From the NCBI GenBank assembly GCA_002423485.1, contig DIWH01000070.1:25429-89428 (forward strand): a stretch of DNA of 64,000 bases, written 5' to 3'. The position numbers were made by a program, and so were the translations under genes. Shown here one piece after another: positions 11,163 through 38,427 of this stretch; position 1 is the stretch's first letter, and every line of letters starts with the position of its first letter. The notes below the pieces were generated by a model. That model saw nothing but the letters and a program-made list of their open reading frames with translations, searched no databases and was not told the origin of the DNA. This DNA is from Candidatus Xenobium occultum (GTDB lineage: Bacteria; Vulcanimicrobiota; Xenobia; Xenobiales; Xenobiaceae).

Positions 11163-11378
11163 GTGAAGTTGACGATCGAGTTCGAGCGCGAAGGGGAGAC
11201 CCGCTGGATCGCCGAGGTCCTGGAACTTCCGGGTGTGCTGGTCTACGGGGCCAGCCGCGCCGAAGCCTCCACCCGCATCAAGTCGCTCGCGCTCAGCCGC
11301 GTCGCGGACATGCTCGCCCACGGTGAACTCGAGCTCGACAACCTGATCGAGTTCGAAGAAGCCACGCTGGCTGCTTGA
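11163..11378 (+). CDS. hicB: HicB-like antitoxin (UPF0150 fold, short form lacking a DNA-binding domain)
   Basis: MKLTIEFEREGETRWIAEVLELPGVLVYGASRAEA matches the HicB N-terminal beta-alpha pattern. The GTG start has a GGGAGGG SD. Its stop overlaps the next start by 4 bp. Confidence 0.7.
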   Translation: MKLTIEFEREGETRWIAEVLELPGVLVYGASRAEASTRIKSLALSRVADMLAHGELELDNLIEFEEATLAA

Positions 11379-11587
11379 GCATCTGGCCCAACACCAAGGC
11401 TCGGCGGGTCTATGCCGCGCTCCTCCGCATGGGTTGGCGGCTCAAGAGACAGAGCGGTTCCCATCGAGTCCTCGAGCGCTCTGGTTCCCCGGACTTCCTG
11501 TTCGCGTTCCACGACCGGGAGGAGATCGGCGGAGCGATGTTGGCGCGCATCGGCAGACGGACAGGCCTCCGGCCATCCGACCTCTGA
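11375..11587 (+). CDS. hicA: HicA mRNA-interferase toxin
   Basis: RRVYAALLRMGWRLKRQSGSHRVLER contains the HicA K/R...GW...GSH core. It is 70 aa and translationally coupled to hicB. Confidence 0.75.
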   Translation: MSIWPNTKARRVYAALLRMGWRLKRQSGSHRVLERSGSPDFLFAFHDREEIGGAMLARIGRRTGLRPSDL

Positions 11588-11661: not shown

Positions 11662-11678
11662 TCTAGCGTGAGTTTCGG
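11662..11678. repeat. left terminal inverted repeat of the IS
   Basis: TCTAGCGTGAGTTTCGG. It contains the TAG that terminates the unassigned plus-strand ORF 11412-11666. Confidence 0.7.
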
Positions 11679-11724
11679 GGGGCAGGGCGACCTCGGCCAG
11701 TGAAAGCCCGTAGCCACTGCGGTT

Positions 11725-13443
11725 TCAGCTCACGTCATGAGTATACACAAAGGGGGGCGCCTGTGGGACCAGGTGCTCGAACACCGGGGGATCGCCGTCG
11801 CCCTCCTCCAGGACCCAGTTGCATGTGATCTTCTGCTTGCTCCGTTGGGTTGCGGTGTGCATGACCATGGCGAGCCTTGTCCGGCCAAGATGGTTCAAGA
11901 GTCCGGACAGGCTTCCCGTCCAGCCGCAGCGGGTCCGAGCCTCGTGATGCACCAGTCGAGCGAGGATGTAGGCGATCAAGCAGATGAAGATGTGGACCCG
12001 GAGCTTCTGGTCTGTCCAGTGGAACTGGGGTCGCACCGCGAGGTGCGTCGGGTCCTTCACCTGACGGAAGGCTGCCTCCAATTCGTATTGGCCGCGGTAG
12101 GCGAGAACGATCTCCTCGCTGGTCCAGTCATGCCGGTCGGTCATGAGGATGCGCTTGCCGAAGACGTCCTGATCCAAGCGCTCCACGGCATCCTGGTCGA
12201 TCGACCAGGTCAGTCTTTCCCGCCCCGACCGCTCTGGATTGAACTCGACCCGGAGCACATCGCGCACGTATTGGCCTGAGGTGAGCGAAGCGATCTTCTT
12301 CTGGGCACTCTCCGCGTTGCGTGGCCGGGAGCGCGGCTTTTCCAACTGGTCCTGCCACCTCGTCAGCGCTCGAATGCGCTTCTGAAGATGCTGGTTCAGG
12401 CCCCTCATCTGGCCCTCCCGGAGCATCTCGCTTCGGTAGAGGACCAGAGTTCGCTCCGCGCCCCAGATCACGCGCTTGCAGCGGTACACCGGCAGTCCCG
12501 CCAGTCGACCATCCTCCAATGCCGCATATTCCTCCAGGGGGATCTCTCGAAGGGCGCGGTATCGGCTGGGCGGCAGGGCGCCGACGTAATGAAAGGGAGC
12601 CTCGTCCACCTGGGCCTGGTTGCTCCGGGAGTTGTTGCCCATATCGTAGACGATGGTCGTCTCCTTGACCTTCTCTCCCAGGAGCGCTTCGAGCCGGGCC
12701 TGGATGCACCCGAGCGCCTGTGAGAACTGGACGACATCTGGGACGTTGCCATCGTAGACATGCGTGCACAGGGGGATCTGGCTCTCTCGGGCGCACAACA
12801 CCGACCAGGAAATCAGGCGCAGGTCCACGCGCTTCTGCTTGGAGTGGCCGCGCTGCGGGAGCTTGGGCCGGGTGTTGGTGCTTGCGATATAGGTGAAGAA
12901 GTTCGTGGTGTCGTACAGCAGGGTCTCGAGCTTCAGTTGGAACTCGTCGACGACCTTGCGGACCAATTCACCCTCGATCGCCTCGAGAGCCTCTGGGGAA
13001 ACGCGGTTCATCTGGTCCCAGAAGAACTGGCTGGTCAGTCGGTCAGGCCGCGTCAGACCGAACAGGTGCGAGATCGTGGTGTCTGCCGCCCACTCTGCCC
13101 ACCCCCGCTTGGATCGAGGTTGCACGGCCCGGTTGAGAGCTGCCAGCAGCAATGTGGTGCCGACTGATGGCGAGCGGCGACCTGGACCGACGTGACGGTC
13201 GATGATCTCGGCTACGCCGAGCCTGTCAGCCATGGCTTTGAGCGCGGCAACGTTGCCGTGCTGCTTCGAGCTCAAACGGATGGGGCCCGGTGCCCGGCCC
13301 GGATCTTGAAGGCGAGCCAAAAGGGCATCGGCCGTTCCGAGATACGCAACTGGAACAGGGCGCGGCTTCCCGTTCACGCGGCGAGACTCGACGATGCGCC
13401 AGTAGGTCCTGCCACCGACGCGGTGCTTCTGGAGGCTGGCCAT
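11725..13443 (-). CDS. IS1634-family transposase
   Basis: 572 aa, ATG start. The sequence, size and C-terminal architecture resemble IS1634/IS4 DDE transposases. Confidence 0.85.
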   Translation of the reverse strand: MASLQKHRVGGRTYWRIVESRRVNGKPRPVPVAYLGTADALLARLQDPGRAPGPIRLSSKQHGNVAALKAMADRLGVAEIIDRHVGPGRRSPSVGTTLLLAALNRAVQPRSKRGWAEWAADTTISHLFGLTRPDRLTSQFFWDQMNRVSPEALEAIEGELVRKVVDEFQLKLETLLYDTTNFFTYIASTNTRPKLPQRGHSKQKRVDLRLISWSVLCARESQIPLCTHVYDGNVPDVVQFSQALGCIQARLEALLGEKVKETTIVYDMGNNSRSNQAQVDEAPFHYVGALPPSRYRALREIPLEEYAALEDGRLAGLPVYRCKRVIWGAERTLVLYRSEMLREGQMRGLNQHLQKRIRALTRWQDQLEKPRSRPRNAESAQKKIASLTSGQYVRDVLRVEFNPERSGRERLTWSIDQDAVERLDQDVFGKRILMTDRHDWTSEEIVLAYRGQYELEAAFRQVKDPTHLAVRPQFHWTDQKLRVHIFICLIAYILARLVHHEARTRCGWTGSLSGLLNHLGRTRLAMVMHTATQRSKQKITCNWVLEEGDGDPPVFEHLVPQAPPFVYTHDVS

Positions 13444-13611
13444 ACATTGTGTATACCATATATTTGAAAACCAGTCAAACTTCCGATTTCATCGGGGTTT
13501 GCTGGCATAGACCTGTTTGTGTATACACTTTTCGGCAAGAGAAGAGCCCCGGAAACGCCCGTCAAATGGGGCTTCCGGGGCTCCTGCGGCGGCCCAGGTT
13601 TGGGCGCCTAT

Positions 13612-13628
13612 CCGAAACTCACGCTAGA
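13612..13628. repeat. right terminal inverted repeat of the IS
   Basis: CCGAAACTCACGCTAGA. Its CTA is the minus-strand stop codon of gene 13624-14511. Confidence 0.7.
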
Positions 13629-14511
13629 CGGGCCGGATGGTGATCAGGTCCCCTTCCTTGATGCCCATCTTCTTGATCATCGCCGGGGCCAGGCCGGCAT
13701 AGCCACCCATCTTGCGCGCGGCCTGGCACTTGTACTCGTACAGATCGCCGTCGGAGGTTTCCAGCTCGACGTTGAAGGTGGTCTTGGCATCCAGGCCCCA
13801 CTCGCGTACGATGTACTCGTCCACCTTCACGATGTCTCCGGCTCGGAAGAAGGTGCCATCCTGCCGCGCGATGAGTTGCTTGATCTTCTCAAGCTCCTCC
13901 TCCTTCTGACGGCGGCGGTTCTCGATCTCCGAAGCCTTCTCGGCGTAGACGTTGAGGGTGGCGCCGTTCTTGTGGACATAGTCCAGAAGTTCGCTCACGG
14001 CGTCGGTGCCACAGAGAACCTGACCATACTCGCGGCTGAAGCGGTCGGTGACCAGCTCCCCCCGGTTCATCAGGAGGAAGTGGGTCCCCTCCCGGCTGGC
14101 CATCTTGATGATCCCACTGTACTCCCCGGATTCGAGGTTGGTCAGGACCTTTTTGAGTTCACGACGCTTGACCTCATAGTCCAGATACAAGGGCTGAAAG
14201 GCAAAGAGCCCACCCAAGACGTTGACGATGGGACCCGAAGCCACGTAGGTGGAGACCGCCAGATCGCGATTCTTGATCCGGTTCAGAAGGCGGGGCAGCA
14301 GGTGGACCGAGGCGCTTCCGCTGGCTGGATCGACCTCCATGGCCCGGACCAGGTTCCCCTCGGAGTAGAAGACAAGCCCCGAGGAATCCTGGAGGTCCAG
14401 CTTCACGTAACCCGTGAAGGCATCCTCCACCAGGTTGGTGAGCATCGTGTTGATATCCGAGTACGGGAGCGTCTCGTCCTCGATCAGGATGTTGCCTTTG
14501 GGGACCTGCAA
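13624..14511 (-). CDS. hypothetical protein with DUF4388-like N-terminal repeats and a C-terminal AbrB/SpoVT-like swapped-hairpin motif
   Basis: TTG start with an AGGAGG SD 9 nt upstream. The N-terminal GNILIEDETLPYSDINTMLTNLVEDAFTGYVKLDL resembles the DUF4388 pattern. The C-terminal MIKKMGIKEGDLITIRPV resembles the AbrB/MazE LGIxEGDxVxI motif. Its stop codon lies inside the IS terminal repeat. Confidence 0.5.
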   Translation of the reverse strand: MQVPKGNILIEDETLPYSDINTMLTNLVEDAFTGYVKLDLQDSSGLVFYSEGNLVRAMEVDPASGSASVHLLPRLLNRIKNRDLAVSTYVASGPIVNVLGGLFAFQPLYLDYEVKRRELKKVLTNLESGEYSGIIKMASREGTHFLLMNRGELVTDRFSREYGQVLCGTDAVSELLDYVHKNGATLNVYAEKASEIENRRRQKEEELEKIKQLIARQDGTFFRAGDIVKVDEYIVREWGLDAKTTFNVELETSDGDLYEYKCQAARKMGGYAGLAPAMIKKMGIKEGDLITIRPV

Positions 14512-14541
14512 GTTCCGAATCCTCCTGGATAGACTGTGGGC

Positions 14542-15576
14542 CTACTCTTCTTCAGTTTGAGGGGGGGGAGGCTTGGGCCGCCCCTCCTCACGTTTGAGGT
14601 CGAGGGAGATGGTGCGTGGGCGCCCGGTCTCCGACTCTGCGGGCCCCGGTGAGGTTGGAACCGCCACGGGGGGCGAAGAGGGCGGGCTCGGGCCCAACTG
14701 AATCCGGGAAGGCGGAGCCGGAGGCCCGGAGGGGAGCGCGGTTGGAGTCTCGGAAGCCACCGGAGGCTGGGACTCGGCTGAGGCTTTGGTCAACAGGGAC
14801 TTCCAGGGGTCCTCGTCCACCTCAGACTTGGGCGCCCCCGTGGCCTCCGCCGGAGCCGTCTGCCCCAGGAGCTTCTTCCAGGGGTCCTCCTCGGGAGCCT
14901 TCAGCGACACAGGAGACGGAGGTGCTGGCGGCTCATCCTCTGCCTGCACCTTGCTCAACAAAGCCGCCCAGTCCCCGCCAGACGACGGAGCCGTCACCGG
15001 CGAGGGGACCTCGAGGCGGCCCTCGGACGGGACCGACAGAACCGAACCGGTCTCCTCCGAGCCGATCTGGGCCAGACGCTGGAACGGGCTGAGCTCCTCG
15101 ACGTCATCCGGACGAACGGGCGCGACCGGCTCCTCGGAGCGGGGGGGAGGGGTCGAACCGGCAGGCCGGGTCATGGAGACCTCCTCCAAGGAGCCCGGGA
15201 CCTTCTGCTCGGCGGGTTCCTTCTCAGGTGCGGCGGTCTTCCTGAGCAGGGCTTTGAAGGGGTCTTCGTCCTCCAAGGAGGCCGGAGCCTCAGGCCCACC
15301 TGCGGGAGGTTCCTCCGTGGCCGGTGTCAGCAAGGGAGGGCCTGCCGCAGACCTGCGGGCCAGCACTTCCCAGACGACCAGTGCGACCAGCAGAGCGGCA
15401 AGCACCCAGAAAGCTCCCAGCAGGGTGCCGGTGTGCGCCCCCAGGCCCCCTTCCGGCTCTTGGGCCAGACCAGTCCCCGACAAAGCCAGGAACGCAAGAA
15501 GCAAGGTTCCCCCTCCCAGAGCGCGCGGCCTGACCGAGGGGCCTGCCCAGACATCCACGTGAGACTCGCTGTTCAC
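14542..15576 (-). CDS. single-pass membrane protein with a proline-rich tail and three EDP[FW]KxLL repeats
   Basis: Start taken at the GTG 8 nt after the TPR gene stop; an alternative GTG lies at 15558. There is a signal-anchor (GGTLLLAFLALSGTGLAQ) and a transmembrane helix (LLGAFWVLAALLVALVVWEV). A ~300-aa P/E/A/S-rich region contains DEDPFKALLRK, EEDPWKKLLGQ and DEDPWKSLLTK. The rest of the 568-aa track ORF overlaps the TPR gene. Confidence 0.55.
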   Translation of the reverse strand: MNSESHVDVWAGPSVRPRALGGGTLLLAFLALSGTGLAQEPEGGLGAHTGTLLGAFWVLAALLVALVVWEVLARRSAAGPPLLTPATEEPPAGGPEAPASLEDEDPFKALLRKTAAPEKEPAEQKVPGSLEEVSMTRPAGSTPPPRSEEPVAPVRPDDVEELSPFQRLAQIGSEETGSVLSVPSEGRLEVPSPVTAPSSGGDWAALLSKVQAEDEPPAPPSPVSLKAPEEDPWKKLLGQTAPAEATGAPKSEVDEDPWKSLLTKASAESQPPVASETPTALPSGPPAPPSRIQLGPSPPSSPPVAVPTSPGPAESETGRPRTISLDLKREEGRPKPPPPQTEEE

Positions 15577-15583
15577 GACTCTT

Positions 15584-18500
15584 CTAGACCTCTCTGCCCC
15601 AGTTGTCAGCAGGTTCCCCATACTCTCCGAGGTTCCCGCCATCCGAATCGGACTGGAGGCGCTCGAAGAGGACCTCGATGCGCTCCGAGACATCGCGGAA
15701 GCGGATGTCCACCGCGTAACACTCCTGATAGGCCTGGAGCGCCTCGTTGAAGCGCCCCTCCTCCTCCAGGACCTGGCCGAGGTTGTAGCGCAGGTCCAGC
15801 AGATCGTCGTCCATGAACCCGGGCTGGTCCAGAGCCTTGAGGAACTGACGGATGGCCAGATCCCGGTAGCCCTTTTCCTTGAAGGCCATTGCCAGGTGGT
15901 TGACCGCCAGCAGCATCTTGCCTGGGTCCCGAGAGGCCCGATAGAACTCCTGGATGGCTTCCTCCAGGAAGCCCATCTGCCGATAGAACTCACCCATCTT
16001 GATCTGGGATCCAGCATCCTCGGGCGAATAACCGACGGCCTGCCGATACTCGCTGACGATCCGACCCACCAGGCCTTTAGCGAAGATCTGACGGGCCACG
16101 CCGGCCGCCTCTTCCAGTCGCTCCTGCCGGGCGTAGATGATGGCCACCCGCGAGAGCGCCCCGGCACAACCGGGTTCCCTCCGCAGGACCTCGTCGTAGT
16201 AGGGACGAGCCTCCTCAAAATGCTCGGCATTGAAGAGCAGGTCCCCAATCTGCTCCAGGACCCGGGGTTCCTCGCCCGAACGACGGCCGATTTCCTCCAG
16301 GACCGGATGTGCCGCCTCCACGCCGCGATAGGCCAGGACCAGTTCGGCCAGGCGGAACAGCAGACCCAGGCCGTGCTCGACCCGCTGATGGTTCAAGGCC
16401 AGGTCGGCGGCGCGACGAGAATAGGCGATGGCCTGCTCGTGCTCGCCCAGCTCCAGGTATCGGGTGGAGATGGCTTCGACCAGCTCCAGCGCGCGGTCCC
16501 ACTCCTCCATCCTCTCCATGATCCCGGCCAGACGGTCTTTGACGATCAAGGAGATGCCCTTGCGCCCCTGGTCCAGGAAGGACTCTTCCAGGCGCTCGAT
16601 GCGAGAGATGCCCTCGGGCACGTTCTTGTGCCGGAAGAATCCGTCGATCAGCTTGACGAAGAGCGGATCGGTCCGTTCCTTGCGTCCTCGGACCAGATAC
16701 TGCTCCAAAGTGTGCAGATACTGCTCCTGGGCTTCCTTCCAGTCCTCCGCCTCCACCAGCTCGTCGGCCACGCGCTCGCGATACTCCAGGGCGGTCTCCC
16801 ACTGCTGGTTGTCTTCAAAGGTCCGCGAGAGGGTCCAGAAAACCTGGATCACGTGCTCATGGTCGCCCCGGCCCTTGTAGGTCGAGGCCAGCTCCTCCAT
16901 CAGCTTCTGGCCCTCTTCCAGGAAGCCGGTCTTCAGGAACATCTCACCCAGGCGCTGGCGAAGCTCCAGGTTCAGAGGCTGCAAGTTGACAATTTCGCGC
17001 ACGCACAGGCGGGCTTCGTCGATCTCGCCCCGATCCAGGTGAATGCCGAGCAACATCCGATAATGTTCGGTGGCCTCGTCGAACCGGAGGTTCCTGGTCA
17101 GCAACTGAATCAACTGACGCCGGTGGGGGATGTCCTTGGGCTCGAGCTCGAGAATCCGATGGAGGACCCGCTGGGCCACCTCAGGAAGATTCTGCAGCAG
17201 GTAGACCTTGGCCAGTTGCGAGAACTGCTCGAGGGCCTGGGCGGTCTGACCATGTTCGGCCCAGATGTGGCCCAGACGGTAACGGGCATTCAGGTTTTCC
17301 GGGTCGATCTCCAGCAGACGGCTGTAGATATCCGCAGCCGACGTGGCATTCCCCTCGCTATGGAAACGGCCGGCCAGGACCAGCATGCCCTCTCGGGCGC
17401 GCTCCAGCTTGCCCTGGCAAGCCACCTCGTGGGAGAGCCGCAGCCGGATCTCGACGTCCGCGGGATGGTAGGCCAGCAGCTCGCGGTAGAGACGCTCCGC
17501 CTCCTGATGGTTTCCCGTGGCGGAAACAGACTCCGCCATCTGGTAGACCTCCTGGCGCGCCTGAGCCAGGTCTCCCGACATCAGGTAGTTGTGGACGATC
17601 CCATCCAGGTACTGCTGCTTTTCGTCCATGTCGTCGGGAAGGTGCAGGACCATCTCCCGCAGACGGTCCATCTGCCCGGTAGCCTCAAACTTCTGCAGGA
17701 GCAGGCGCAAGAAGGACCGCTTCTCGGGATCACCGGGGTCCAGGGCATGGATGTCGCGCTCGGCGTCCTCCAGGCGGTTGGCGTTGAGGTAGGCCTGAAT
17801 GATTCGGCGCCGATAGCGGGGACGGATTTCGTCCTCCAACGAGAGACGGCCAACCTCCTCGGCGGCCCGATCGATGTCTCCGCTTTGCAGATAGGCCTCG
17901 ATCAACTGGCCCATGAACGAGTTTCGAGCCGGGTCCGCCTCGGGCAGACGCTCGATCTCACGAATTGCCTCGGAGAGACGGTTTGCCGTCAGCAGGCCGG
18001 AAATCTGCCGAGCCAGGAAATCCGGACGCGACTCGTCGCCCTCGGGAAGTCGGGCCAGCTCAGCGGCCGCTTCTTCCAGTCGACCGGTATCCTGATAGGA
18101 GCCGATCAGGCGCCTCTGAAAGGAGAGTCGGAGGGGGTCCTCGGCGGGAAGCCGGTTGATCAACTCCGCCGCCGTCTCGAGGTTCCCCGAGTTGAGGTAC
18201 ATCTCCATCAGGCGGGTGACCAGCCGGTTGCGCTCCTTGTCCGAGCGGGGCACCAGGGGCATGGCCGCGTCGGCCTTCTCCAGATCATTGGCATCCAGGT
18301 AGCGTTTGATCAGGTCCTTGCGGAACCCGACCTTGCGCTCGTCGTCGTCGAGCAGGCGGTCCAGGTGGCCCTCCACCTCCTCCAGGTGGCCGTCCGCCAG
18401 TTCCTTCTCGATCAGGCGACAGAGGAGGTTCCCCCGCTCGAAATCCTCTTCGGGCAGGGCCTGGATCTCTTGAAGAGCCTCCTCCAGTCGGCCGGACTCC

Positions 18501-20005
18501 AGGCAATACTTGACCAGACGCTTGCGCACATCCAGCCGTCCAGGCTCCTGGGCCAGCACCGTGCGATACGTCTCGACCGCCTCATCCCAACGATCCAACG
18601 CGGAGTATTCCTCTGCCAGGTAGACCCGGGCCAGCAAGTCGTCCGGACGCTCCCCCAGCAAGCGCAACAACTCGCGAACGGCACCGTCGTGGTCCCCCTG
18701 TCCCCGCAGGGTCAGGCCCACCTGATACTGCAGGTCGGAGGCCTCGGGGAAAAGTTCGACCAGCCGATGCTGAAAGTCCATCGCGGCGCTCTCGTCCCCG
18801 GCGTCCTGATACAGCCGCACCACCTGCTGGAACTCGGTCAGGGCCTCCGAGTTCATGTCCTTCTTCCGGTAGACCTCCCCCATCAGCTTGCGAGCTTCGA
18901 TGTTCCCGGGGTCCAGTTCCAGGAGCTTGCGGGCAACCGGCAGTGCCTCTTCGATCATGCCCCGTTCCAGATGCGACCGGGCCAGAGCCAACTGCTGTTC
19001 GCCGGCCTCTGCGGTCATGCCACGGCGCAAGAGATTCTCGACCAGGCGCAGCCGAACCGAGGTGTTCGACGGGTCCCGGGCCAGGATGTTGCGGTAGATG
19101 TCGATGACCTGGTTGCGGGCCTCCTCGTTCTGCGGGTCGCAATCCAGCAGCTTCTCATAGAAGCCGATCACCTTGTCGAGCAGGCCCTCTTCCTGATAAA
19201 TCCCGGCGAGGGTACGATAGGTCTCGACCGCCTGCTCGGTTCGCCCTTCCGAGGCGTAGATCTCGGCGAGCTTGACCAGGATGTCCTTGTTGCGGGACTC
19301 GTATTCCAAGATGCGCTCGTAGGTCCGGATGGCATCCACCATCTGCTTGCGCTGCATGTAGAGCTCGCCCGCGTTGCGGAACCAGACCACCGTCGTCTGG
19401 GGTTGCCGTCCGGCACGGATGAACACCTCGCCCAGCATCTCGTAGGCCTGGGCGGCCTCATTGGGAGCCAGGCGGACGACCTCCTGGAACTCGCCGATGG
19501 CCTCCTTGTCCTTGCTCTGAGCCATGAGGGCCCGCCCCAAGGCCATGTGGGTGTCCCATCGACCGGGGTCGATGTCCAGGCTGGACCGGAGCCAGCCTAC
19601 GGATTCGTCGTGGTCGCCTTTGTCCAGATAGAAGCGGCCGATCCGAGAAAAAATCTCGGGCTTGACCTGCGCCACCCGATTCTGGATTTCAGAAGCCTCT
19701 TCGCCGCCGAAGCCCTTCTTGCGCACGCTCTGCTCAAGGTTGACGATGATCTTGTAGCGTTCGATCGCCTGGTCGACCTCGCCTTGAGCCGCAAAGAGCT
19801 CGGCCAGGGCCATGCACTGGCTGATGACCTCGCCGTAGTCCCCCCGACGGGTGGCCGCCTCCAGGATGTGGTCTCGAAGCTGAACATCCTCCGGAGCCAG
19901 CTCCAGGGCCTGGCCATAGGCCCCCATGGCCTGATCCCAACGGCCTTGGGCGGCCAACTGGTCCCCTTGCTGGATCAGCGTGTCGATCTTCTTGCGGTCT
20001 GCCAT
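15584..20005 (-). CDS. giant cytoplasmic tetratricopeptide-repeat protein (1473 aa)
   Basis: Continuous TPR-like 34-aa repeats throughout, with no signal peptide or transmembrane segment. The C-terminal ~150 aa are homologous to the C-terminus of the adjacent 1695-aa protein (…RYNLGQVLEEEGRFNEALQAYQECYAVDIRFRDV… versus …RYNLAMLLYQNHRIQEALTELKDILAVDVAYRDV…). Confidence 0.85.
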   Translation of the reverse strand: MADRKKIDTLIQQGDQLAAQGRWDQAMGAYGQALELAPEDVQLRDHILEAATRRGDYGEVISQCMALAELFAAQGEVDQAIERYKIIVNLEQSVRKKGFGGEEASEIQNRVAQVKPEIFSRIGRFYLDKGDHDESVGWLRSSLDIDPGRWDTHMALGRALMAQSKDKEAIGEFQEVVRLAPNEAAQAYEMLGEVFIRAGRQPQTTVVWFRNAGELYMQRKQMVDAIRTYERILEYESRNKDILVKLAEIYASEGRTEQAVETYRTLAGIYQEEGLLDKVIGFYEKLLDCDPQNEEARNQVIDIYRNILARDPSNTSVRLRLVENLLRRGMTAEAGEQQLALARSHLERGMIEEALPVARKLLELDPGNIEARKLMGEVYRKKDMNSEALTEFQQVVRLYQDAGDESAAMDFQHRLVELFPEASDLQYQVGLTLRGQGDHDGAVRELLRLLGERPDDLLARVYLAEEYSALDRWDEAVETYRTVLAQEPGRLDVRKRLVKYCLESGRLEEALQEIQALPEEDFERGNLLCRLIEKELADGHLEEVEGHLDRLLDDDERKVGFRKDLIKRYLDANDLEKADAAMPLVPRSDKERNRLVTRLMEMYLNSGNLETAAELINRLPAEDPLRLSFQRRLIGSYQDTGRLEEAAAELARLPEGDESRPDFLARQISGLLTANRLSEAIREIERLPEADPARNSFMGQLIEAYLQSGDIDRAAEEVGRLSLEDEIRPRYRRRIIQAYLNANRLEDAERDIHALDPGDPEKRSFLRLLLQKFEATGQMDRLREMVLHLPDDMDEKQQYLDGIVHNYLMSGDLAQARQEVYQMAESVSATGNHQEAERLYRELLAYHPADVEIRLRLSHEVACQGKLERAREGMLVLAGRFHSEGNATSAADIYSRLLEIDPENLNARYRLGHIWAEHGQTAQALEQFSQLAKVYLLQNLPEVAQRVLHRILELEPKDIPHRRQLIQLLTRNLRFDEATEHYRMLLGIHLDRGEIDEARLCVREIVNLQPLNLELRQRLGEMFLKTGFLEEGQKLMEELASTYKGRGDHEHVIQVFWTLSRTFEDNQQWETALEYRERVADELVEAEDWKEAQEQYLHTLEQYLVRGRKERTDPLFVKLIDGFFRHKNVPEGISRIERLEESFLDQGRKGISLIVKDRLAGIMERMEEWDRALELVEAISTRYLELGEHEQAIAYSRRAADLALNHQRVEHGLGLLFRLAELVLAYRGVEAAHPVLEEIGRRSGEEPRVLEQIGDLLFNAEHFEEARPYYDEVLRREPGCAGALSRVAIIYARQERLEEAAGVARQIFAKGLVGRIVSEYRQAVGYSPEDAGSQIKMGEFYRQMGFLEEAIQEFYRASRDPGKMLLAVNHLAMAFKEKGYRDLAIRQFLKALDQPGFMDDDLLDLRYNLGQVLEEEGRFNEALQAYQECYAVDIRFRDVSERIEVLFERLQSDSDGGNLGEYGEPADNWGREV

Positions 20006-20049
20006 GTCTTCTCCGGTCTGCGCTCAGTTGGGGTGAAAGGAGACGGGCC

Positions 20050-23000
20050 TCAGACTCCCCGTCGGGGTGGCATACGGGGGGTCTTCCCGCTGCCTCCCCC
20101 AGCGATCTCCTCCTGGAGCAGCCTCACCCACTCGTCGACGTCGCGGTAGGCGACATCGACCGCCAGGATGTCCTTGAGCTCAGTCAGGGCCTCCTGGATG
20201 CGATGGTTCTGGTACAGGAGCATCGCCAGGTTGTAACGCAACTCAAGGTAGTCCTGCTCGGCGTGTCCTTTGGTCTCCAGGCCCCGGCGGAACTGGCGGA
20301 CGGCCAGGTCCAGACCGAAGCGGGGGTTCCGGGCGAAGGCCAGCCCCAACATGTTGTAGGAACGCAATTCGTGATCCCGGTCGGAACGAGTCTTCTGGAA
20401 CTGTTCGACGGCATCCTCGACGCGATTGAGGAAGTAGCAGACCTCGCCGTAGACGAATCGGGTTGCCCAGTCCGTCGGTTCAGCCGCGATCCGCTCCTTG
20501 TACTCGCTGAGGATCCGCTCCCGAGAGGCCTCCCCCGCCTCGGGCTGAACCTCGACCAGTCGATTGAGGACCTCCGCGGCTTCCCGAGCCTTTCTCTGTT
20601 CCATGAGGAGCCGGGCGTAGCGGTCCATGGCCTCGGAATGCCCGGGATTCAGCTCGAAGACCCTTCGGAACTCGTTCAACGCCCCGGGCAGGCTGCCCAA
20701 TTTTTCGTCATACAGACGAGCCAGGCGATAGTGCAGATCGTCCCGGGTCGGGGCAACCTCCAGCGCCCGCTGCAAGACCTGGACGGCTTCACGCTCACGC
20801 CCTGAAGCTTCGTGAAGGTCGGCCAGCACCAGCAGTTGCTCGAGCACATCCTCGTGCCGCCCGGCCATCTCGTAGAACTCCAACAGGCGTCGCCGCAGGT
20901 CCAGGGACCTGGGATCGGCTTGCGTGAGGCGCCGATACAGATCGATGGCAGGGCCCGTGTCCTTGGTCTCGAGATAGAGTTCGGTCAAAGGCTGGGAATC
21001 CCTCAACGCGGCAGCCAGATCGCCACTGCGCAGATGGCAGTCCACCAAGCGACGACGAGCCTCGTGATGAGTCGGATCCTTCTCCAACACCTGCTCGAAG
21101 AGAGCGGCCGCCTCCGAGATGGCCCCCTGATCCTCGTGACGGCAACCCAACTCGAAGCGGCCCTCCAGGACCCGGTCCGAGCGTTCCAGTCTCTCGTAGA
21201 GCTCGATCAAGGCGTGGCGGTCAGCCAGGTTGTCCGGGTCCAGGGCCACCAGCTTCTCGGTGACCCCCGTGGCCTCGTTCCACATCTGGGTTTCCCGGTA
21301 TCTGTGGGCCAAAGCGCGATAATTGACCAACGCCTGGGCCACCTCGCCCTGGGTCTCATAGACCTGGGCCAGGCGTTCCTGGAAGGTCGGGTCCTCGGAG
21401 AGGGTCATCAACTGCTGGAATGCCCCGATCGCCTCCTCCACGGTCCCCCGTGCCAGGGCGATCTCGGCAAGCTGGCGGAGGTGATGGACAGCCAGGTTCT
21501 TCTGCCCCAACACCGAGAAGCGGTCGACCAGGCGACGGCGTGCCAGGAAGTGGTTGGGATCCAGGCTCAATATCGATTGAAGGATGTCGACGGCGTCGGC
21601 CTCACGATCCTTCCGGACATGAAGCTCGGCCAGTTCCAGGAAGGTCGAAGCGGCCTCCTCATACTCTGCATTCCACAGGTAGGCATCTGCCAGCCGATGC
21701 CTCAAGGCGATGGACTCCGGCTTGCGCATCAGGATCTGACGGTACTGCATCACCGCATCGTCCAACAGACCATAGCGAAGATGAATGTCAGCCAGATCGG
21801 TCCGGAGCATCAGGTTGTCCGGCGACTCCTCGACCGCGCGGCGATAGGCGCTGATCGCTGTGGTGACATCTGCTCCCCCGAGCTTCTCCCGGATCTTTCG
21901 GGCCTCCTGAATCTGCTCGTGCGGGAACTCCGACTCCACGGCCAGCGAACACAGGGATTCCGGAACAAGTGCCTCCTCGGCCGCAGGCTCAACCTCCTCC
22001 GGCTCCGAGGCGGAGGTCGGCGCCGTGGCCTCGGCTGGTTCCTCGACGGGCTCGGCAGCCGCCTCCTTCTCAGACACTGCCGGTTGAGCCTGGTCCGGGA
22101 CGCCCTCCGGAACGGATGGGGCCTGCTCCCCTGGGCCACCTACGGTGGCCTCGACCTCAGAACTGGCAGTCTGCGGTGGGGTCCCTGGCTCAGGTGCCGC
22201 CGCCTGTTCGGTGACTGGCTCCGGATGGTCTTCTGGAGCCGGGCCGGCCAGGAGCTCCTCCTGGCCGGACTCGCCGGACAGCGTTTCGTCCAAAGCCGGA
22301 CCCGCGAACAGGTCCTCCTCGGAAGCTGGGCCTGCGAAGAGTTCATCCTCGAGCGATCCGGCAGGCAAAGGCTCCTGGGAGGCCGGTCCCGCGAAGAGAT
22401 CCTCCTCCGAGGCCTCCGGACCCGCGAAGAGGTCCGCATCCTCAGCGACGGCCAGAGGTTCGACCTCTGAAGCCGGCGCCTCCAGCAAGGGGTCAGAGGG
22501 CGACGGGGCCGGCTCGGAGGGCTCGGCCGGAGCCGCAGACCCTGCGGTTGGCGCCTCGACCAGCGCCGTCGCCTGTTCCTCTTCCGGCTGAACGGCCACC
22601 GGGGCGGGGGAGTCCGGGATGGGCGTCTCTTCGGCAACCGGCGAGGCCATCGGCTTCTCAACCGCCGGACGTCCCCCCTTCGTGGCTGCGGTCCTCGCCT
22701 GGCCGGGCCGCCCCCCATGAACGACTGGCCCGGTGGGCTCTGCAACCTGCGGAGCGGAAATCTTCTCGGGTGCCGGAGTCACCTGGGGCGCAGGAATCCT
22801 CTCTGGCGCAGGCGTCACGGCAGGCGGCGCCGCCTGGGACGCCCCCAGCAAAGCCTTTCGTCCACGCGCCACCGGAGGCGGTGTACCTGGGCGGACCTTC
22901 GCCGGGGTCGGGGGTTTGGGTGGGGCCTCCGCTGCAGAAGGCCGGGTCGACTGGTCTCGCTCCAAAGCCTCCTTCTCGGCCCGCATCCGGGCGATCCGGT

Positions 23001-25137
23001 CGGCCAGGGTCCCGGCGGCCGAAGGCGGACGAGCGCTGGCCGCGCTGACCGACTCCTGGGAAGGCTCCGGTGGCTCCTCCGCCCGGGCGCTGGGTCGCCG
23101 GGATTTCTGACCAGCCGCCGAGCGCATTCCTTGAAGCAGCGACCCGCCAGAGAAGTTCAGACCTCCTTTGGCACCTGCAAACCGGGAAGCGATGGGGCCA
23201 GACTTCTTCTCGGCGGGCGCCTCGGGGACCCGAGCTTCGACCTTCTTCTGGCGGACCTGACGGACCTTCTCGCCGTCCACCTCCAGCAGGGGGGTCCAGG
23301 GAAGAACCTCGGGGTCCGGGGCCTGCACGACCTGCTCGCGGATCTGCTCCAATCGGTCCGGTTGGGCCAGGAAAAGCACTGGCGGAGGCACCTGGAGTTC
23401 TCCAGGCTCTGCCTGGACCACCACGACCGGGCGAACAACGGTGACACGCGGCGGCGCGGAAACCGCGGCGGCCTGCTCCGACAGCGGCTCGGCCTCCAAA
23501 GAGTCTGAATCAAGTCGTGGAACCGAGGACTCGGGCCCCTCCTCTGGGGTGGGAACGGGCTCCAAGGACTGGGGCTCAATTTCGGGGGGCGGTTCCTCGA
23601 GCGGGGGCGGCTCTTCAGCCGGAAACTCCACGACAGGGTCCGCCACTGGCGGCGCCTCCTGTGCGATTTCGGGAACGGCGGCCGCCGTCTCCTCGAGGAC
23701 CTCCTCTGGAAGCTCCTCGGCCACCTCTTCCGCGGGCTGACGCCGGCGCAGCGTCCTCTTGCCGCCCAGAACAGGCTTCTCGGCTCCAGGCAACCCCAGC
23801 CCCGGCTTCATCAGCCCTGGCCTGGGGCCCGCCCCGCCTCGACCAAGAACCGGCTTCTCCGTCCCAGCAGCGACCAGCCCGGCCTTGCCGCCGACCTTGC
23901 GCGTCAACCCCCGAGAACCGGCCCCCTCCTTGCGGACCAGGCCCTTCCGGACGCGTTCGTCGGTCTCCGGTGCGGCATCCGGCGATTCCAGCCCCTTGCG
24001 ACGCTTCTTCCCGACCTGGATGGACTCTCCAGAGCCAGACCTGGCGGTCTGCCCCGAGCGTTTGGAACGGGCCGGTTCGGGGGCCGGCGCCGGTTGCGCT
24101 GCAACGGCAAAGTCCCCGGGATCCGGCGTGAGGGGCGCACCGAGATTGGTCAACTCGCGGCAAGCCGTGGGATTGGTGGGGTCCAGCGCCAGAACGCGCT
24201 GGTAGAGCTTGACGGCACGGGGATGGTCTTCCAACTGCTGCCAGGCGTGTGCCGCGGCCAGATAGTGCTTGACGGCTTCGGCCGAAATTCCTTGAGCCTG
24301 GTAGAGTTCCCCAAGACGCTCCTTGGCGGAGTTCTCATGAGGATTGATGGTCAGAATCTTGTTGAAGGCGAGGATGGCATCGCGGAACTGACCCTTCTTC
24401 TGGCAGACATCGCCCAAGGCCAGCAAGGCCTCCTCATGATTGAGGTCGTGCCGAAGGATCGCACGGAATTCCTGTTCCGCCTCGTTGAAGCGGCCCAAGG
24501 TGACGAAGAGCTTGCCAAGAGTGAAGAAGACGCCAGGATCGTCAGGGACGATCACCTTCATCCGCCGATAGGCCTCCGCAGCCTTCTCGACCTGCCCCTT
24601 CTGCTGGAAGGCCGACGCGACCCGGCGGTACTGTGCTGCGCCTTCCTCGATGTGGCCGTGGCTCACGAACATCTCGGCGAGTTCAAGCCCGATCTCGAGG
24701 TTGTCTGGATCGGATTCCTGAGCACTCTTCAGCAGCGAAATGGACTGGTCGCCCTGGCCCAGTTCGATGTAAAGGCGAGCCAATTCACGCGAGCGGCGGA
24801 CGACCTCGGCATGATCCCCCTTCTTGCGAAGAATCTGGATGACCCGCATCCGCGCGGCGTCAGACTCCGGGTCCAGCCGCTGGATCCAGCCGGCGACCTC
24901 AATCGCGGGGTCCAGCTCCGACCGCGCCTCAAGGATGTCCATCAGACGGAAGTAGGTCTGAACGACCGACTTGATCATCCCTCGGACCGCGTAAGCATGC
25001 GCTCGCTTCTCGCATGCCTTCGCGTTCTCAGGATCAAGTTCCAGGACCCTCTTGAGCTTCTCCAGGGCGGCATCCCAGTCGCGCTCCTCGATCAGCGACT
25101 CGGCCTCCCGCATCAAATCCCGGACGTCATCGGCCAC
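20050..25137 (-). CDS. giant cytoplasmic tetratricopeptide-repeat protein (1695 aa) with a ~650-aa disordered Pro/Glu/Ala-rich insert
   Basis: TPR arrays occupy roughly residues 1-330 and 1010-1695. The central low-complexity region contains five [ED]-[ED]-L-F-A-G-P motifs and EKPVLG repeats. It is paralogous to 15584-20005. Confidence 0.85.
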   Translation of the reverse strand: MADDVRDLMREAESLIEERDWDAALEKLKRVLELDPENAKACEKRAHAYAVRGMIKSVVQTYFRLMDILEARSELDPAIEVAGWIQRLDPESDAARMRVIQILRKKGDHAEVVRRSRELARLYIELGQGDQSISLLKSAQESDPDNLEIGLELAEMFVSHGHIEEGAAQYRRVASAFQQKGQVEKAAEAYRRMKVIVPDDPGVFFTLGKLFVTLGRFNEAEQEFRAILRHDLNHEEALLALGDVCQKKGQFRDAILAFNKILTINPHENSAKERLGELYQAQGISAEAVKHYLAAAHAWQQLEDHPRAVKLYQRVLALDPTNPTACRELTNLGAPLTPDPGDFAVAAQPAPAPEPARSKRSGQTARSGSGESIQVGKKRRKGLESPDAAPETDERVRKGLVRKEGAGSRGLTRKVGGKAGLVAAGTEKPVLGRGGAGPRPGLMKPGLGLPGAEKPVLGGKRTLRRRQPAEEVAEELPEEVLEETAAAVPEIAQEAPPVADPVVEFPAEEPPPLEEPPPEIEPQSLEPVPTPEEGPESSVPRLDSDSLEAEPLSEQAAAVSAPPRVTVVRPVVVVQAEPGELQVPPPVLFLAQPDRLEQIREQVVQAPDPEVLPWTPLLEVDGEKVRQVRQKKVEARVPEAPAEKKSGPIASRFAGAKGGLNFSGGSLLQGMRSAAGQKSRRPSARAEEPPEPSQESVSAASARPPSAAGTLADRIARMRAEKEALERDQSTRPSAAEAPPKPPTPAKVRPGTPPPVARGRKALLGASQAAPPAVTPAPERIPAPQVTPAPEKISAPQVAEPTGPVVHGGRPGQARTAATKGGRPAVEKPMASPVAEETPIPDSPAPVAVQPEEEQATALVEAPTAGSAAPAEPSEPAPSPSDPLLEAPASEVEPLAVAEDADLFAGPEASEEDLFAGPASQEPLPAGSLEDELFAGPASEEDLFAGPALDETLSGESGQEELLAGPAPEDHPEPVTEQAAAPEPGTPPQTASSEVEATVGGPGEQAPSVPEGVPDQAQPAVSEKEAAAEPVEEPAEATAPTSASEPEEVEPAAEEALVPESLCSLAVESEFPHEQIQEARKIREKLGGADVTTAISAYRRAVEESPDNLMLRTDLADIHLRYGLLDDAVMQYRQILMRKPESIALRHRLADAYLWNAEYEEAASTFLELAELHVRKDREADAVDILQSILSLDPNHFLARRRLVDRFSVLGQKNLAVHHLRQLAEIALARGTVEEAIGAFQQLMTLSEDPTFQERLAQVYETQGEVAQALVNYRALAHRYRETQMWNEATGVTEKLVALDPDNLADRHALIELYERLERSDRVLEGRFELGCRHEDQGAISEAAALFEQVLEKDPTHHEARRRLVDCHLRSGDLAAALRDSQPLTELYLETKDTGPAIDLYRRLTQADPRSLDLRRRLLEFYEMAGRHEDVLEQLLVLADLHEASGREREAVQVLQRALEVAPTRDDLHYRLARLYDEKLGSLPGALNEFRRVFELNPGHSEAMDRYARLLMEQRKAREAAEVLNRLVEVQPEAGEASRERILSEYKERIAAEPTDWATRFVYGEVCYFLNRVEDAVEQFQKTRSDRDHELRSYNMLGLAFARNPRFGLDLAVRQFRRGLETKGHAEQDYLELRYNLAMLLYQNHRIQEALTELKDILAVDVAYRDVDEWVRLLQEEIAGGGSGKTPRMPPRRGV

Positions 25138-25477: not shown

Positions 25478-25517
25478 CTGAAGAACGCAGGAGGGCGGTG
25501 CCGAAGCACCGCCCTCC
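25478..25517 (-). terminator. Rho-independent terminator after pilQ
   Basis: Perfect 12-bp stem GGAGGGCGGTGC / GCACCGCCCTCC with a UUCG tetraloop (25490-25517), starting 24 nt after the pilQ stop. It is followed on the minus strand by UGCGUUCUUCAG. Confidence 0.6.
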
Positions 25518-25540
25518 TGGGAAGCGGCCTGACTCGAGGC

Positions 25541-27583
25541 CTACTTCATGATGTGCGGGGTCATCATCAAGATCACTTCGTTGCGATCCGCCGAATCGGT
25601 CACCGAACGGAACAATGGACCGAAAATCGGGAGGTCGCCCAGAAGCGGGATCTTGCTGACACTGTGACGCTGGCTCTCCGAAATGAGGCCGCCCAGCACG
25701 ATCGTGTCGCCATCCTTGACGCGCATCGTCGAAGTGACGGTGCGGACCGTCGTCCGTGGGTACTGGTTGTTCACGAGGTCCACCAGGTTGGAGACCTCTG
25801 GCTTGACCTCGGCCACGATGTAGCCGTCCGCCTTCACCTGGGGCTTGACCTCCAGGGTCACACCGATGTTGACGTAGGTGACCTGGAACTGACCGGCGCG
25901 CGGGTCAAAGAACACGATGGGGAACTTGTCGCCCACGTGAATCCTCGCCTCGCCACCAGACTGGGTGGCAACCCTGGGTGAAGCCAGGATCTTGGCTTCG
26001 CCGTTGGTGATCAAGAAGGCCAGGGTCGTCTGGACCACAAAGGGCGTGCGCCCGAAAGGTCCGATGGCCAGGCCGGCCATTTCGGCCAGGTCGATCTGGT
26101 CGTTGGTGATCGAGCCGGCCGCTGGAACCAGGGCCGGAACGATCTCGCCAAACGTGGTCTGGAAGGAACCCGGTGCGTTGGGAGCGCCCCAAGTGACGCC
26201 GAGGTTCTTTCCACCGCTCTCTGTCAGGTCGACGACCTTGACATCCAGCATGACCTGATCCTGGGGCCGGTCGATGGTCGCGAGCAGTTCCTGCAACGCT
26301 TCGATCGAGGCATCCGAGCCCTCGACGATCAGCAGGTTGAGCCGCTCGTCCGCGTTGTATTCCAGGTCCGGAACCAAGGTCTTGGCCAGGGCCTGAACGT
26401 CACGCAGTTCGCCGTATTTGACGGGGATGAACTCACGCCGGGCCGCGGGCGGGGGTTCAGGAACCTGATCCAGGCCGGGAATGGAGGCCTTGATCTGGCG
26501 CAGTTCGTCCCGAGTCGCCTTGGCAAAGAAGCCGTTCAGCGTCGGGTGCTGGGTGAACTCGACGTCGGGGTACTGAAGCTTCAGGAACTCCGTCACCTTG
26601 GCGGCCGGAGCCACTTCCAGCAAGAATTCCTGAGAAATCAGGTCGCGACGCGAGGCGGCCGACTTGGTCCGCGGGGTGAGGATGTCATCGGCAACCTGGG
26701 CCAACTTCTCGGGACTGGCCACCACGATGGTCCCGTCCACGATCTTGTAGCTGTAGTCGTTCTCCTGCATCTTCAGGATCAACGCCAGGGCGCCTTCAGG
26801 CTGGACCTTGTTCAGGGTGACGGTGACCGTCCCCATCACGTTGGGAGCAACGAAGACGTTCCGGCCCATCTCCTGGGCCAGAGCCTTGATGACAAAGACC
26901 AGGTCTGCATTGACGAAATCGATGGAGACGGTCTTGGGAGCCGGCGCAGGCCGGGGACGAGGCGCCTGGGCCCTCAGGGCCGAGGCCGATGAAGTCGGCG
27001 TCCGGGTCACGGACGCGGGGGTCGCAGGACGAGACTGCGCCTTGGCCTGGGGTGCAGGCTTCGGAGCGGGAGCGGTCTGAGCGACCGGCTTGTGAACGGG
27101 AACCGGACGAGTGGCTTCCACACTGGGAACTGCCGGGGCTTTCGTGACTTTCGCCTCGGCAATCTGAGATGTGGAAACGGCCACCGTCAAGCCACGCCGC
27201 TCGGGCGCCGGGCTGACCTGAAGTTGCGGCTGCGAGATCACGTCCAGGTAGACGCGAACCGTGTCCGGCGTGTACTGGGCCAAGCGAACCTTCTCCACCA
27301 GGCCCCGGTTGACATCCGTCTGGGCACGGGCTCCGCTTCCGAGAACCGCCGGCCACACGTCGATGACTACCATCTGCCGCGGCTCGGCGAGCCGCTTGGA
27401 ACGGAAGCTCACCGGGGCCGTGGCCTGGACGTCCACCTTCAGCGTTCCAGTGCCGTCGGTAATCTTGACTCCACTCACGGTCGCGCTGGCAGCCTGGGCC
27501 GTCGTGGTCGCAGGCAGCAACAGTCCTACGGCCAGAAGGCACGCGAGCAGAAGCTTCCAGCTTCTAGGCTTCGACAAGAGCAT
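25541..27583 (-). CDS. pilQ: type IV pilus secretin
   Basis: Signal peptide, N-terminal AMIN-like region, an Ala/Pro-rich linker, secretin-N and C-terminal secretin domains (IPLLGDLPIFGPLFRS...MMTPHI). Confidence 0.9.
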   Translation of the reverse strand: MLLSKPRSWKLLLACLLAVGLLLPATTTAQAASATVSGVKITDGTGTLKVDVQATAPVSFRSKRLAEPRQMVVIDVWPAVLGSGARAQTDVNRGLVEKVRLAQYTPDTVRVYLDVISQPQLQVSPAPERRGLTVAVSTSQIAEAKVTKAPAVPSVEATRPVPVHKPVAQTAPAPKPAPQAKAQSRPATPASVTRTPTSSASALRAQAPRPRPAPAPKTVSIDFVNADLVFVIKALAQEMGRNVFVAPNVMGTVTVTLNKVQPEGALALILKMQENDYSYKIVDGTIVVASPEKLAQVADDILTPRTKSAASRRDLISQEFLLEVAPAAKVTEFLKLQYPDVEFTQHPTLNGFFAKATRDELRQIKASIPGLDQVPEPPPAARREFIPVKYGELRDVQALAKTLVPDLEYNADERLNLLIVEGSDASIEALQELLATIDRPQDQVMLDVKVVDLTESGGKNLGVTWGAPNAPGSFQTTFGEIVPALVPAAGSITNDQIDLAEMAGLAIGPFGRTPFVVQTTLAFLITNGEAKILASPRVATQSGGEARIHVGDKFPIVFFDPRAGQFQVTYVNIGVTLEVKPQVKADGYIVAEVKPEVSNLVDLVNNQYPRTTVRTVTSTMRVKDGDTIVLGGLISESQRHSVSKIPLLGDLPIFGPLFRSVTDSADRNEVILMMTPHIMK

Positions 27584-38317: not shown

Positions 38318-38427
38318 CTTATATCCTCCAAACAGCGTGGAACCCAACCACCCAGCCCTCCGCTTGAGGCGGACGACCGAACGGCTGGGTCAATCGGAAT
38401 CGGTCCGCAAAGCGGACTTGAGAAGAA

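Follow-up and report, generated by a model that had tools for sequence, protein, structure and literature searches.

What might a bacterium gain from encoding two giant tetratricopeptide repeat (TPR) proteins directly behind its type IV pilus genes? The question is raised by a 64,000-nucleotide stretch of Candidatus Xenobium occultum DNA (GenBank assembly GCA_002423485.1, contig DIWH01000070.1, positions 25,429 to 89,428; called the window below), in which four minus-strand genes, TPR1, TPR2, gene 3, and gene 4, follow the pilMNOPQ block. A preliminary description of the locus, made from the sequence alone, had suggested a pilus-associated regulatory or scaffold complex. Gene context and domain content support that idea, if still by inference. 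The explanation favored here, with roughly even confidence, is that the four genes make up the opening operon of a larger cluster, conserved within the Xenobia lineage and specific to it, and that their products form a membrane-tethered cytoplasmic scaffold and switch for the pilus motor. Their most likely role, as judged from the domains and neighbors described below, would be to determine where and when the motor engages.

The four genes occupy 13624-25137 and are as tightly packed as first described. TPR1 (20050-25137; 1695 aa), TPR2 (15584-20005; 1473 aa), gene 3 (14542-15576; 344 aa from a GTG start, or 320 aa in one public annotation), and gene 4 (13624-14511; 295 aa) are separated by spacers of 44, 7, and 30 nt. 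Because the G+C content of the window is about 65%, it also contains long antisense open reading frames (ORFs). One of them, opposite TPR2 (15896-20149, plus strand; 1417 aa), is an artefact of the high G+C content rather than a gene, the conserved protein being encoded on the minus strand. There, Pfam TPR matches reach E values of 1e-65 to 1e-75, and TPR2 has 89 relatives at E<1e-30, with full-length orthologues that are 50 to 100% identical.

Both giants are TPR proteins (Pfam TPR_19, E 3e-65 for TPR1 and 1e-75 for TPR2), and their earlier portrayal as cytoplasmic paralogues has held up. They align by BLASTP at E 1e-27, with 26% identity over about 600 colinear C-terminal residues, and their N termini align as well; both begin with MAD... 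and end in a similar cap. Hydropathy analysis found no transmembrane (TM)-like segment, signal peptide, or hydrophobic N terminus in either protein (maximum 19-residue Kyte-Doolittle scores, 1.34 and 1.12), and TPR1 and TPR2 are predicted to be cytoplasmic. TPR1 has three parts. The N-terminal TPR domain (aa 1-340; 24118-25137) is the best conserved in a profile of 24 orthologues. A disordered, P/E/A-rich linker follows (aa ~341-1075; 21913-24117), poorly conserved and with a basic patch at aa ~400-480, and the C-terminal TPR domain (aa ~1076-1695) is the region paralogous to the C-terminal part of TPR2. Within the linker are four acidic-aromatic repeats, (E/D)(E/D)(D/E)LFAGP (aa 902-950; 22288..22434, minus strand), where shuffled sequences would be expected to yield 0.04 matches. 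The repeats differ by clade, one related clade carrying 7 to 13 copies of DDLFGG and other clades none. TPR2, for its part, consists of TPRs throughout and closes with a conserved terminal cap, ...ECYAVDIRFRDV.

Do the giants belong to any known system? The preliminary description had no known counterpart for a tandem paralogous pair of this size and held that the proteins are not pilotins; the searches agree. The proteins have no lipoprotein signal, and they score below the cut-offs of the TPR pilotin models (PilW, 115 and 89 bits versus 154; Tgl, 68 and 67 versus 225). On the SgmX equivalog model (NCBIfam NF052243), TPR2 reaches 129 bits and TPR1 50 bits, versus a cut-off of 1800, and the generic TPR models PrsT and MamA outscore it. 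A search of PDB sequences with TPR2 matched designed consensus TPRs and OGT and nothing else. A reading of the module as an anti-phage defence system is without PADLOC support: the two TPR proteins gave generic TPR overlaps only (31 and 17 bits), and genes 3 and 4 gave nothing. Distant giant-TPR matches outside the lineage (P0132 and P0133) are taken as generic TPR similarity because they have no pil, PATAN, or Roadblock context. Another distant TPR protein from outside the module's lineage, this one of 2393 aa, has a response regulator and a GAF-PAS histidine kinase beside it (L065, 4226-6259), although its surroundings contain no pilus, PATAN, or Roadblock genes. Giant TPR proteins may thus be paired more generally with such a regulator and kinase.

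The product of gene 3 has a signal-like hydrophobic stretch (aa ~19-38), a single TM helix (aa ~46-72, ending ...VVWEVL-ARR), and a disordered, acidic, P/E/S/A-rich tail of ~270 aa. The positive charges that follow the TM helix suggest that the tail is cytoplasmic; the periplasmic part amounts to ~15 residues at most. Three DP[F/W]KxLL motifs punctuate the tail (aa 102-111, 229-237, and 254-262; ~15244-15273, 14866-14892, and 14791-14817, minus strand), along with two degenerate copies (SPFQRLA and GDWAALL) and a conserved end, RTISLDLK...PPPPQTEEE. Gene 3 has no Pfam or NCBIfam match, and homology searches reach its closest clade only, which includes a metagenome-assembled genome (MAG) labelled "Candidatus Xenobium sp." More distant orthologues were identified by position. 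Across ~30 loci, what these positional orthologues have in common is the TM helix, the C-terminal tag, and the motif, sometimes as a GWADLL variant; the rest of the protein is unalignable. Two loci carry a minimal gene 3 of 62-70 aa that is composed of the TM helix and one DPF motif. On the strength of sequence pattern, this is the signature of short linear motifs displayed on a membrane tether.

Gene 4 had been described as a DUF4388/AbrB-like protein. It is made up of two PATAN-like modules (aa 1-102, 14206-14511; aa 103-192, 13936-14205), a helix (aa 193-208), and a C-terminal double-psi beta-barrel (DPBB; aa ~211-295, 13627-13881), all on the minus strand. The AlphaFold model (AF2) is confident (pLDDT 92, pTM 0.81), and the first two segments are copies of a single alpha/beta module (hhalign 94%, E 1.5e-7). 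PATAN is the domain described by Pfam PF14332 (DUF4388), which 27 of 31 gene 4 orthologues match at E<=0.01 (best, 6.5e-8). A profile of the gene 4 family, moreover, retrieves several hundred DUF4388/DUF2226 proteins (E 1e-22 to 1e-10) via the PATAN region alone. Because of these two results, PATAN membership holds at the level of the family, and with it the DUF4388 half of the earlier label. The AbrB half does not survive: rather than the swapped hairpin of AbrB/SpoVT/MazE, the C terminus is a DPBB, which superposes, at the fold level, on solved domains of the Cdc48/VAT N-domain type. Nor is gene 4 a PatA-type response regulator, as it has no Response_reg match and its C terminus is this barrel. 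A PDB sequence search with gene 4 returned nothing but coiled-coil noise on the linker helix. The likeness to the N-terminal DPBB of Cdc48/p97/VAT comes with a sequence identity of 8 to 22% only, and gene 4, unlike these proteins, has neither an AAA ATPase nor the second (psi-barrel) subdomain. According to the titles of p97-N structure entries, a barrel of the DPBB type binds short adaptor motifs. Stand-alone genes of ~76-123 aa that are homologous to the gene 4 barrel (32% identity) were also found (L001/L004, 16138-16464; P0181, P0222, and P0269), and in some relatives such a gene directly follows gene 4; the paralogues next to gene 4 are ~110 aa long.

How widespread is this set of genes? 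A scan with the TPR2 profile, covering one genome for each of 185,579 species, found 49 loci, of which ~45 are clear orthologues. Their MAGs are labelled UBP9, Candidatus Xenobia, Ca. Bruticola, Eremiobacterota, or Vulcanimicrobiota, with a few less specific or unrelated labels; NCBI taxonomy places Candidatus Xenobia within Vulcanimicrobiota. Among the habitats given in their records are rumen, the human gut (Hadza), horse faeces, groundwater, and the sea. TPR1, TPR2, a gene in the gene 3 position, and gene 4 occur in identical order wherever contigs reach far enough, and loci inspected individually, at 27-95% TPR2 identity, likewise show this synteny. The preliminary description had asked whether the four genes travel together beside the pilus genes. 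They are always together where the contig allows, and in 14 of 17 testable loci the end of pilQ lies ~0.2-1.5 kb upstream of TPR1, with pilM through pilQ upstream.

The cluster does not stop at gene 4. In 30 of 31 loci, a Roadblock gene lies within 3 kb after it (the L007 copy matches Pfam Robl_LC7 at E 2.9e-10), and in most other clades than the closest one it is close behind gene 4, its start falling within ~1 kb in most loci. Usually next come a TPR protein with a weak C-terminal Roadblock match (E 0.009 for the L004 copy) and then a Wzy_C protein; a subset of loci adds a pair consisting of a response regulator and a GAF kinase. The full cluster reads pilMNOPQ, then TPR1-TPR2-gene 3-gene 4, then Roadblock-(response regulator-GAF kinase)-TPR/Roadblock-Wzy_C. 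Together, the tandem PATAN in gene 4 and the MglB-type Roadblock/LC7 gene that follows it in relatives strengthen the link to pilus regulation.

Why, then, does the Roadblock gene not appear in the window? The answer is an insertion sequence (IS) at 11663..13627 (minus strand), which has terminal inverted repeats and a CTAG on each flank and carries a DDE transposase ORF (11725-13443, minus strand; Pfam DDE_Tnp_1). Its ends form a perfect 17-nt inverted repeat (11662-11678 and 13612-13628), and the right-hand CTAG holds the TAG stop codon of gene 4. Homology to related loci (L007, L009, L011, L034, and L062) ends exactly at 13624. What lies at 13624 is a junction with the IS, and the cluster does not naturally end there; the element has parted the two operons, and the Roadblock, response regulator, kinase, and Wzy_C genes are all absent from the window.

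Three public assemblies have a 100%-identical TPR2, and they differ from one another at the gene 4 TAG. One, a JGI contig, agrees with the window across the IS and along the HlyIII side. Another, an ENA contig (L062), is 100% identical over 16,382 bp up to the TAG and then continues into the canonical Roadblock cluster: two opposite-strand genes, Roadblock/LC7, a response regulator, a GAF-PAS histidine kinase, a 356-aa (TPR-Roadblock) protein, and finally a Wzy_C and TPR protein. The third stops exactly at the TAG. Given that these assemblies of one strain disagree here, the arrangement in the window reflects either population heterogeneity, the IS having rearranged the locus in some members only, or an assembly chimera joined at a repeated IS. 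The earlier idea of a four-gene module was right in that the four genes travel together, but the name understates the unit, since relatives and the identical assembly continue past the TAG. The two opposite-strand genes between gene 4 and the Roadblock gene are a feature of the closest clade (L062, 16462-18650; L009, 18369-20613) and encode 470 aa and 259-275 aa. On the far side of the IS in the window lie a small HicA-toxin-like gene with a partner ORF (~11375-11587, plus strand; from the annotation of L063) and, after this pair, a gene for a HlyIII-family membrane protein (10289-11044, minus strand).

At its other end, the module borders pilQ (25541..27583, minus strand), which is the final gene of the pilMNOPQ block, lies directly upstream of TPR1 across a gap of 403 nt, and encodes a secretin with AMIN, N0, Secretin_N, and Secretin domains (Pfam Secretin, E 7e-44). 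A GC-rich 14-bp hairpin followed by CGUUCUUC (25488..25519, minus strand) is a candidate intrinsic terminator of pilQ, folding at -51.8 kcal/mol in its 106-nt context (z -3.9 versus shuffled sequence). Of the pilQ terminator claimed previously, the hairpin is thus present, but it has only a weak U tract, and the site is missing from the output of a simple, strict terminator scan. It is plausible that TPR1 through gene 4 form a transcription unit separate from pilQ. This separation matters for one alternative explanation, namely that the four proteins are structural parts of the pilus machine, making up a lineage-specific cytoplasmic ring or platform for assembly and not a regulator. The idea has some appeal, given the tight, conserved adjacency to pilMNOPQ, the very high conservation of gene 4 and of the TPR1 N-terminal domain, and the membrane anchor provided by gene 3. 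It is nevertheless improbable: a strong hairpin and 403 nt set the genes apart in a probable transcription unit of their own, the window already encodes the core set PilBCMNOPQ, the module is associated with a two-component pair and Roadblock proteins, and it persists in three loci that have no adjacent pil genes.

What would a scaffold and switch act upon? PATAN proteins offer a precedent. The PATAN domain of PixE from Synechocystis, by itself, binds the N-terminal part of PilB1 (aa 1-366) and PilC's N-terminal domain, and it reverses phototaxis (10.1101/2021.06.11.447907). PF05157 (GspE_N/MshEN) is prototypical for PilB's N terminus and is sometimes fused to PATAN; mglA and mglB are often neighbors of PATAN genes; and social motility in Myxococcus requires the PATAN protein SgnC (10.1101/2021.06.11.447907). 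SgmX, a Myxococcus TPR protein acting downstream of MglA, recruits PilB and co-occurs phylogenomically with PATAN proteins (PMC11580455). The pilB gene in the window (38428-40170, minus strand; Pfam) encodes an N-terminal MshEN/GspE_N domain at aa 64-147. In other systems, domains of this type bind c-di-GMP.

How might the parts fit together? Gene 3 would reside in the inner membrane, its disordered cytoplasmic tail presenting one to three DP[F/W]KxLL motifs. Since TPR domains are peptide-binding solenoids, TPR1 and TPR2 would probably dock on these motifs and on the acidic LFAGP repeats in TPR1's own linker, and the docking would create a multivalent platform at the base of the pilus. Output would then pass through gene 4 as an adaptor, whose tandem PATAN would touch PilB at its N-terminal MshEN region, PilC, or both, by analogy with Synechocystis. 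The ligand of the Cdc48-N-like barrel would be a further linear motif or some other scaffold partner, in the way that p97-N takes up adaptor motifs. Switching would be driven by the Roadblock proteins, response regulator, and GAF kinase whose genes lie downstream in relatives. Several features agree with such a scaffold: PilB in the window has the MshEN domain, TPR1's N-terminal domain is strongly conserved, the gene 3 motifs survive in tails that cannot otherwise be aligned, and the nearest outgroup kin of gene 4 mostly occur in operons that join PATAN with Roadblock and an Arf/Ras-like GTPase.

Other observations weigh against this picture. Gene 4 alone scores 20.8 bits against PF14332 (E 4e-4), below the gathering score of 25, and its tandem PATAN part has no informative match among solved structures. 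Three loci (L040, L041, and L043) keep the module and the Roadblock gene and have no pil genes within 6-8 kb upstream. A tblastn search of the window and 58 sequences (1.05 Mb) of related loci with an MglA probe gave no match; this search covered linked loci, and a copy may lie elsewhere in the genome. Finally, a glycan-related role would agree equally well with the Wzy_C gene that closes the cluster.

Because of the three loci without adjacent pil genes, the linkage to the pilus must be called strong yet not obligatory, and it is here that a second alternative enters. The module could be a general cell-polarity or pole-organizing hub, a landmark of the HubP/FimV or MglB type that serves several envelope machines or division, in which case the pilMNOPQ neighborhood would reflect shared ancestry of the locus and not a dedicated pilus function. 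In the three loci, the module is intact together with the Roadblock and TPR-Roadblock genes. The closest outgroup relatives of the tandem PATAN point the same way, as two of the three cases inspected lie in PATAN-Roadblock-Arf/Ras-like GTPase operons with no pilus genes nearby, and the combination of an anchor and an acidic disordered tail resembles polar landmarks such as FimV and HubP. What speaks against a general hub is that pilQ is immediately upstream in 14 of the 17 loci, at TPR2 identities ranging from 27% to 97%, and that the PATAN partners documented in the work cited above are parts of the pilus motor. The exceptions themselves are instructive. Upstream of the module, two rumen MAGs have yceG-PAC2-PAC2-ABC-F (L040, 1-5800), whereas the third exception carries an integrase gene and a further TPR gene. 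The window's own yceG (41147-42145) is found just upstream of pilB; because of this, the pil block seems to have been lost or moved in the exceptional lineages, with the module staying behind, which suggests a secondary change and not an unrelated ancestral position. Judged by gene order, yceG and TPR1 seem to flank a cassette, the whole pil block, which some lineages have and others lack. A general polarity hub is, on this evidence, doubtful.

The Wzy_C gene is the basis of a third alternative, in which the module functions in glycosylation of pilin or the cell surface, or in the handling of polysaccharides, with the TPR giants scaffolding the Wzy_C (O-antigen-ligase-like) membrane protein. 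A Wzy_C and TPR protein does close the conserved cluster in most relatives, genes for a glycosyltransferase and a sugar epimerase come after it in some loci, and in the window a polytopic membrane protein with TPRs adjoins the pilin gene. Yet Wzy_C is the least constant member of the cluster, being absent after the TPR-Roadblock gene in L039-L041, and in the identical assembly it belongs to a different transcription unit, with opposite-strand genes between it and gene 4. The PATAN, Roadblock, response regulator, and kinase components, moreover, indicate signaling and not glycan chemistry. A glycan-related role is improbable.

If the four proteins are indeed a scaffold and switch for the pilus motor, what do they most resemble? 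Membership in known families is found at the level of domains only: TPR, PATAN, DPBB, and, in relatives, Roadblock. The closest functional analogues are the SgmX/MglB network, the cyanobacterial PATAN regulators, and, for the design of an anchor plus an acidic tail, FimV/HubP. The SgmX protein of Myxococcus xanthus, whose gene is presumably located near the pil cluster, is likewise a large cytoplasmic all-TPR protein at the pilus base, within a network that includes the Roadblock protein MglB. The C-terminal TPRs of SgmX bind MglA-GTP, and those at its N terminus activate the recruitment of PilB. It is, however, one protein with 14 TPRs, whereas here there are two paralogues (1473 and 1695 aa), one of which is split by a disordered linker of ~735 aa. 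The module also differs in having no linked MglA GTPase, and no counterparts of FrzS or SopA were seen.

The PATAN regulators (PixE and PixG of Synechocystis, SgnC) share with the module the PATAN-type domain, which forms two modules in the first 192 residues of gene 4, and the habit of having Roadblock genes as neighbors. In contrast to PatA-type regulators, gene 4 has no receiver domain, carries its PATAN in tandem, and ends in a DPBB; its AF2 model also lacks the alpha-helical "alpha-clip" insertion of the PATAN regulators. FimV and HubP are hubs that organize pili and poles, built from a single-pass anchor, acidic disordered regions, and TPR modules. Gene 3 and TPR1 together provide the same elements: an anchor, long acidic disordered regions with short repeats, and TPRs. 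These features are nonetheless split over separate polypeptides, which lack the FimV C-terminal motif as well as LysM or any other domain in the periplasm, and gene 3, for all its TM helix and acidic tail, falls in no Pfam or NCBIfam family and is not a member of FimV/HubP. In the literature searched, no paper was found to connect DUF4388 and Roadblock by name or to describe the module, be it in Eremiobacterota or in Xenobia.

Since no MglA-like gene was found, the switch may work without a linked GTPase or may use one encoded elsewhere. The most far-reaching form of the proposal is a Xenobia pilus hub that is free of the MglA GTPase, in which the motifs on the membrane tether and the LFAGP repeats of TPR1 would gather two TPR solenoids of >1400 residues into a platform, a PATAN-PATAN-DPBB adaptor would link this platform with PilB/PilC, and Roadblock dimers and a GAF kinase would act as the switch. 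This version is tentative and rather unlikely; its platform would be multivalent and possibly condensate-like.

The pilus genes themselves had been called a complete type IV set. Besides pilB and pilQ, the window encodes pilT (37226-38347), pilC (35724-37016), and a pilin (34960-35448), all three recognized by Pfam, as well as pilM (30045-31145; Pfam PilM_2, E 6e-58), pilN (29290-29985; Pfam PilN), pilO (28631-29281; Pfam PilO), and, in the PilP position, a lipoprotein with a lipobox-like N terminus (27968-28627), all on the minus strand. "Complete" is slightly generous, since a scan of the pilus-cluster ORFs (25.5-40.2 kb) turned up no prepilin peptidase (PilD). In relative L005, a prepilin peptidase gene lies just upstream of pilM. 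Two further minus-strand genes are interspersed with the pilus genes in the window. The first (32961-34907), adjoining the pilin gene, encodes a 648-aa polytopic membrane protein with ~6 hydrophobic segments and a C-terminal TPR region, which may be an analogue of the Wzy_C and TPR protein at the far end of the cluster in relatives. The second (31423-32754), between the pilin gene and pilM, encodes a 443-aa protein with one hydrophobic segment and no family match. No Rfam families or tRNAs were found within the window.

Overall, the locus carries a caution for automated scans: an apparent cluster end can be an IS junction, one that varies between assemblies of a single strain. It also carries predictions. 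If the scaffold exists, gene 4 should bind the N-terminal region of PilB, and DP[F/W]KxLL peptides should bind a TPR groove or the barrel. How bacteria regulate the position and activity of their pili is understood in few model organisms: Myxococcus, Pseudomonas, and cyanobacteria. The module, robustly conserved and unstudied, would be another solution, from a class represented here by metagenome-assembled genomes alone. It puts well-known components (TPR scaffold, PATAN, and Roadblock) together in a new way, with the addition of a PATAN-DPBB fusion and a membrane tether bearing short linear motifs, and apparently without the small GTPase that drives the Myxococcus system. A hub that is truly free of MglA would, if confirmed, add a new architecture to those by which bacteria position or gate their surface machines.

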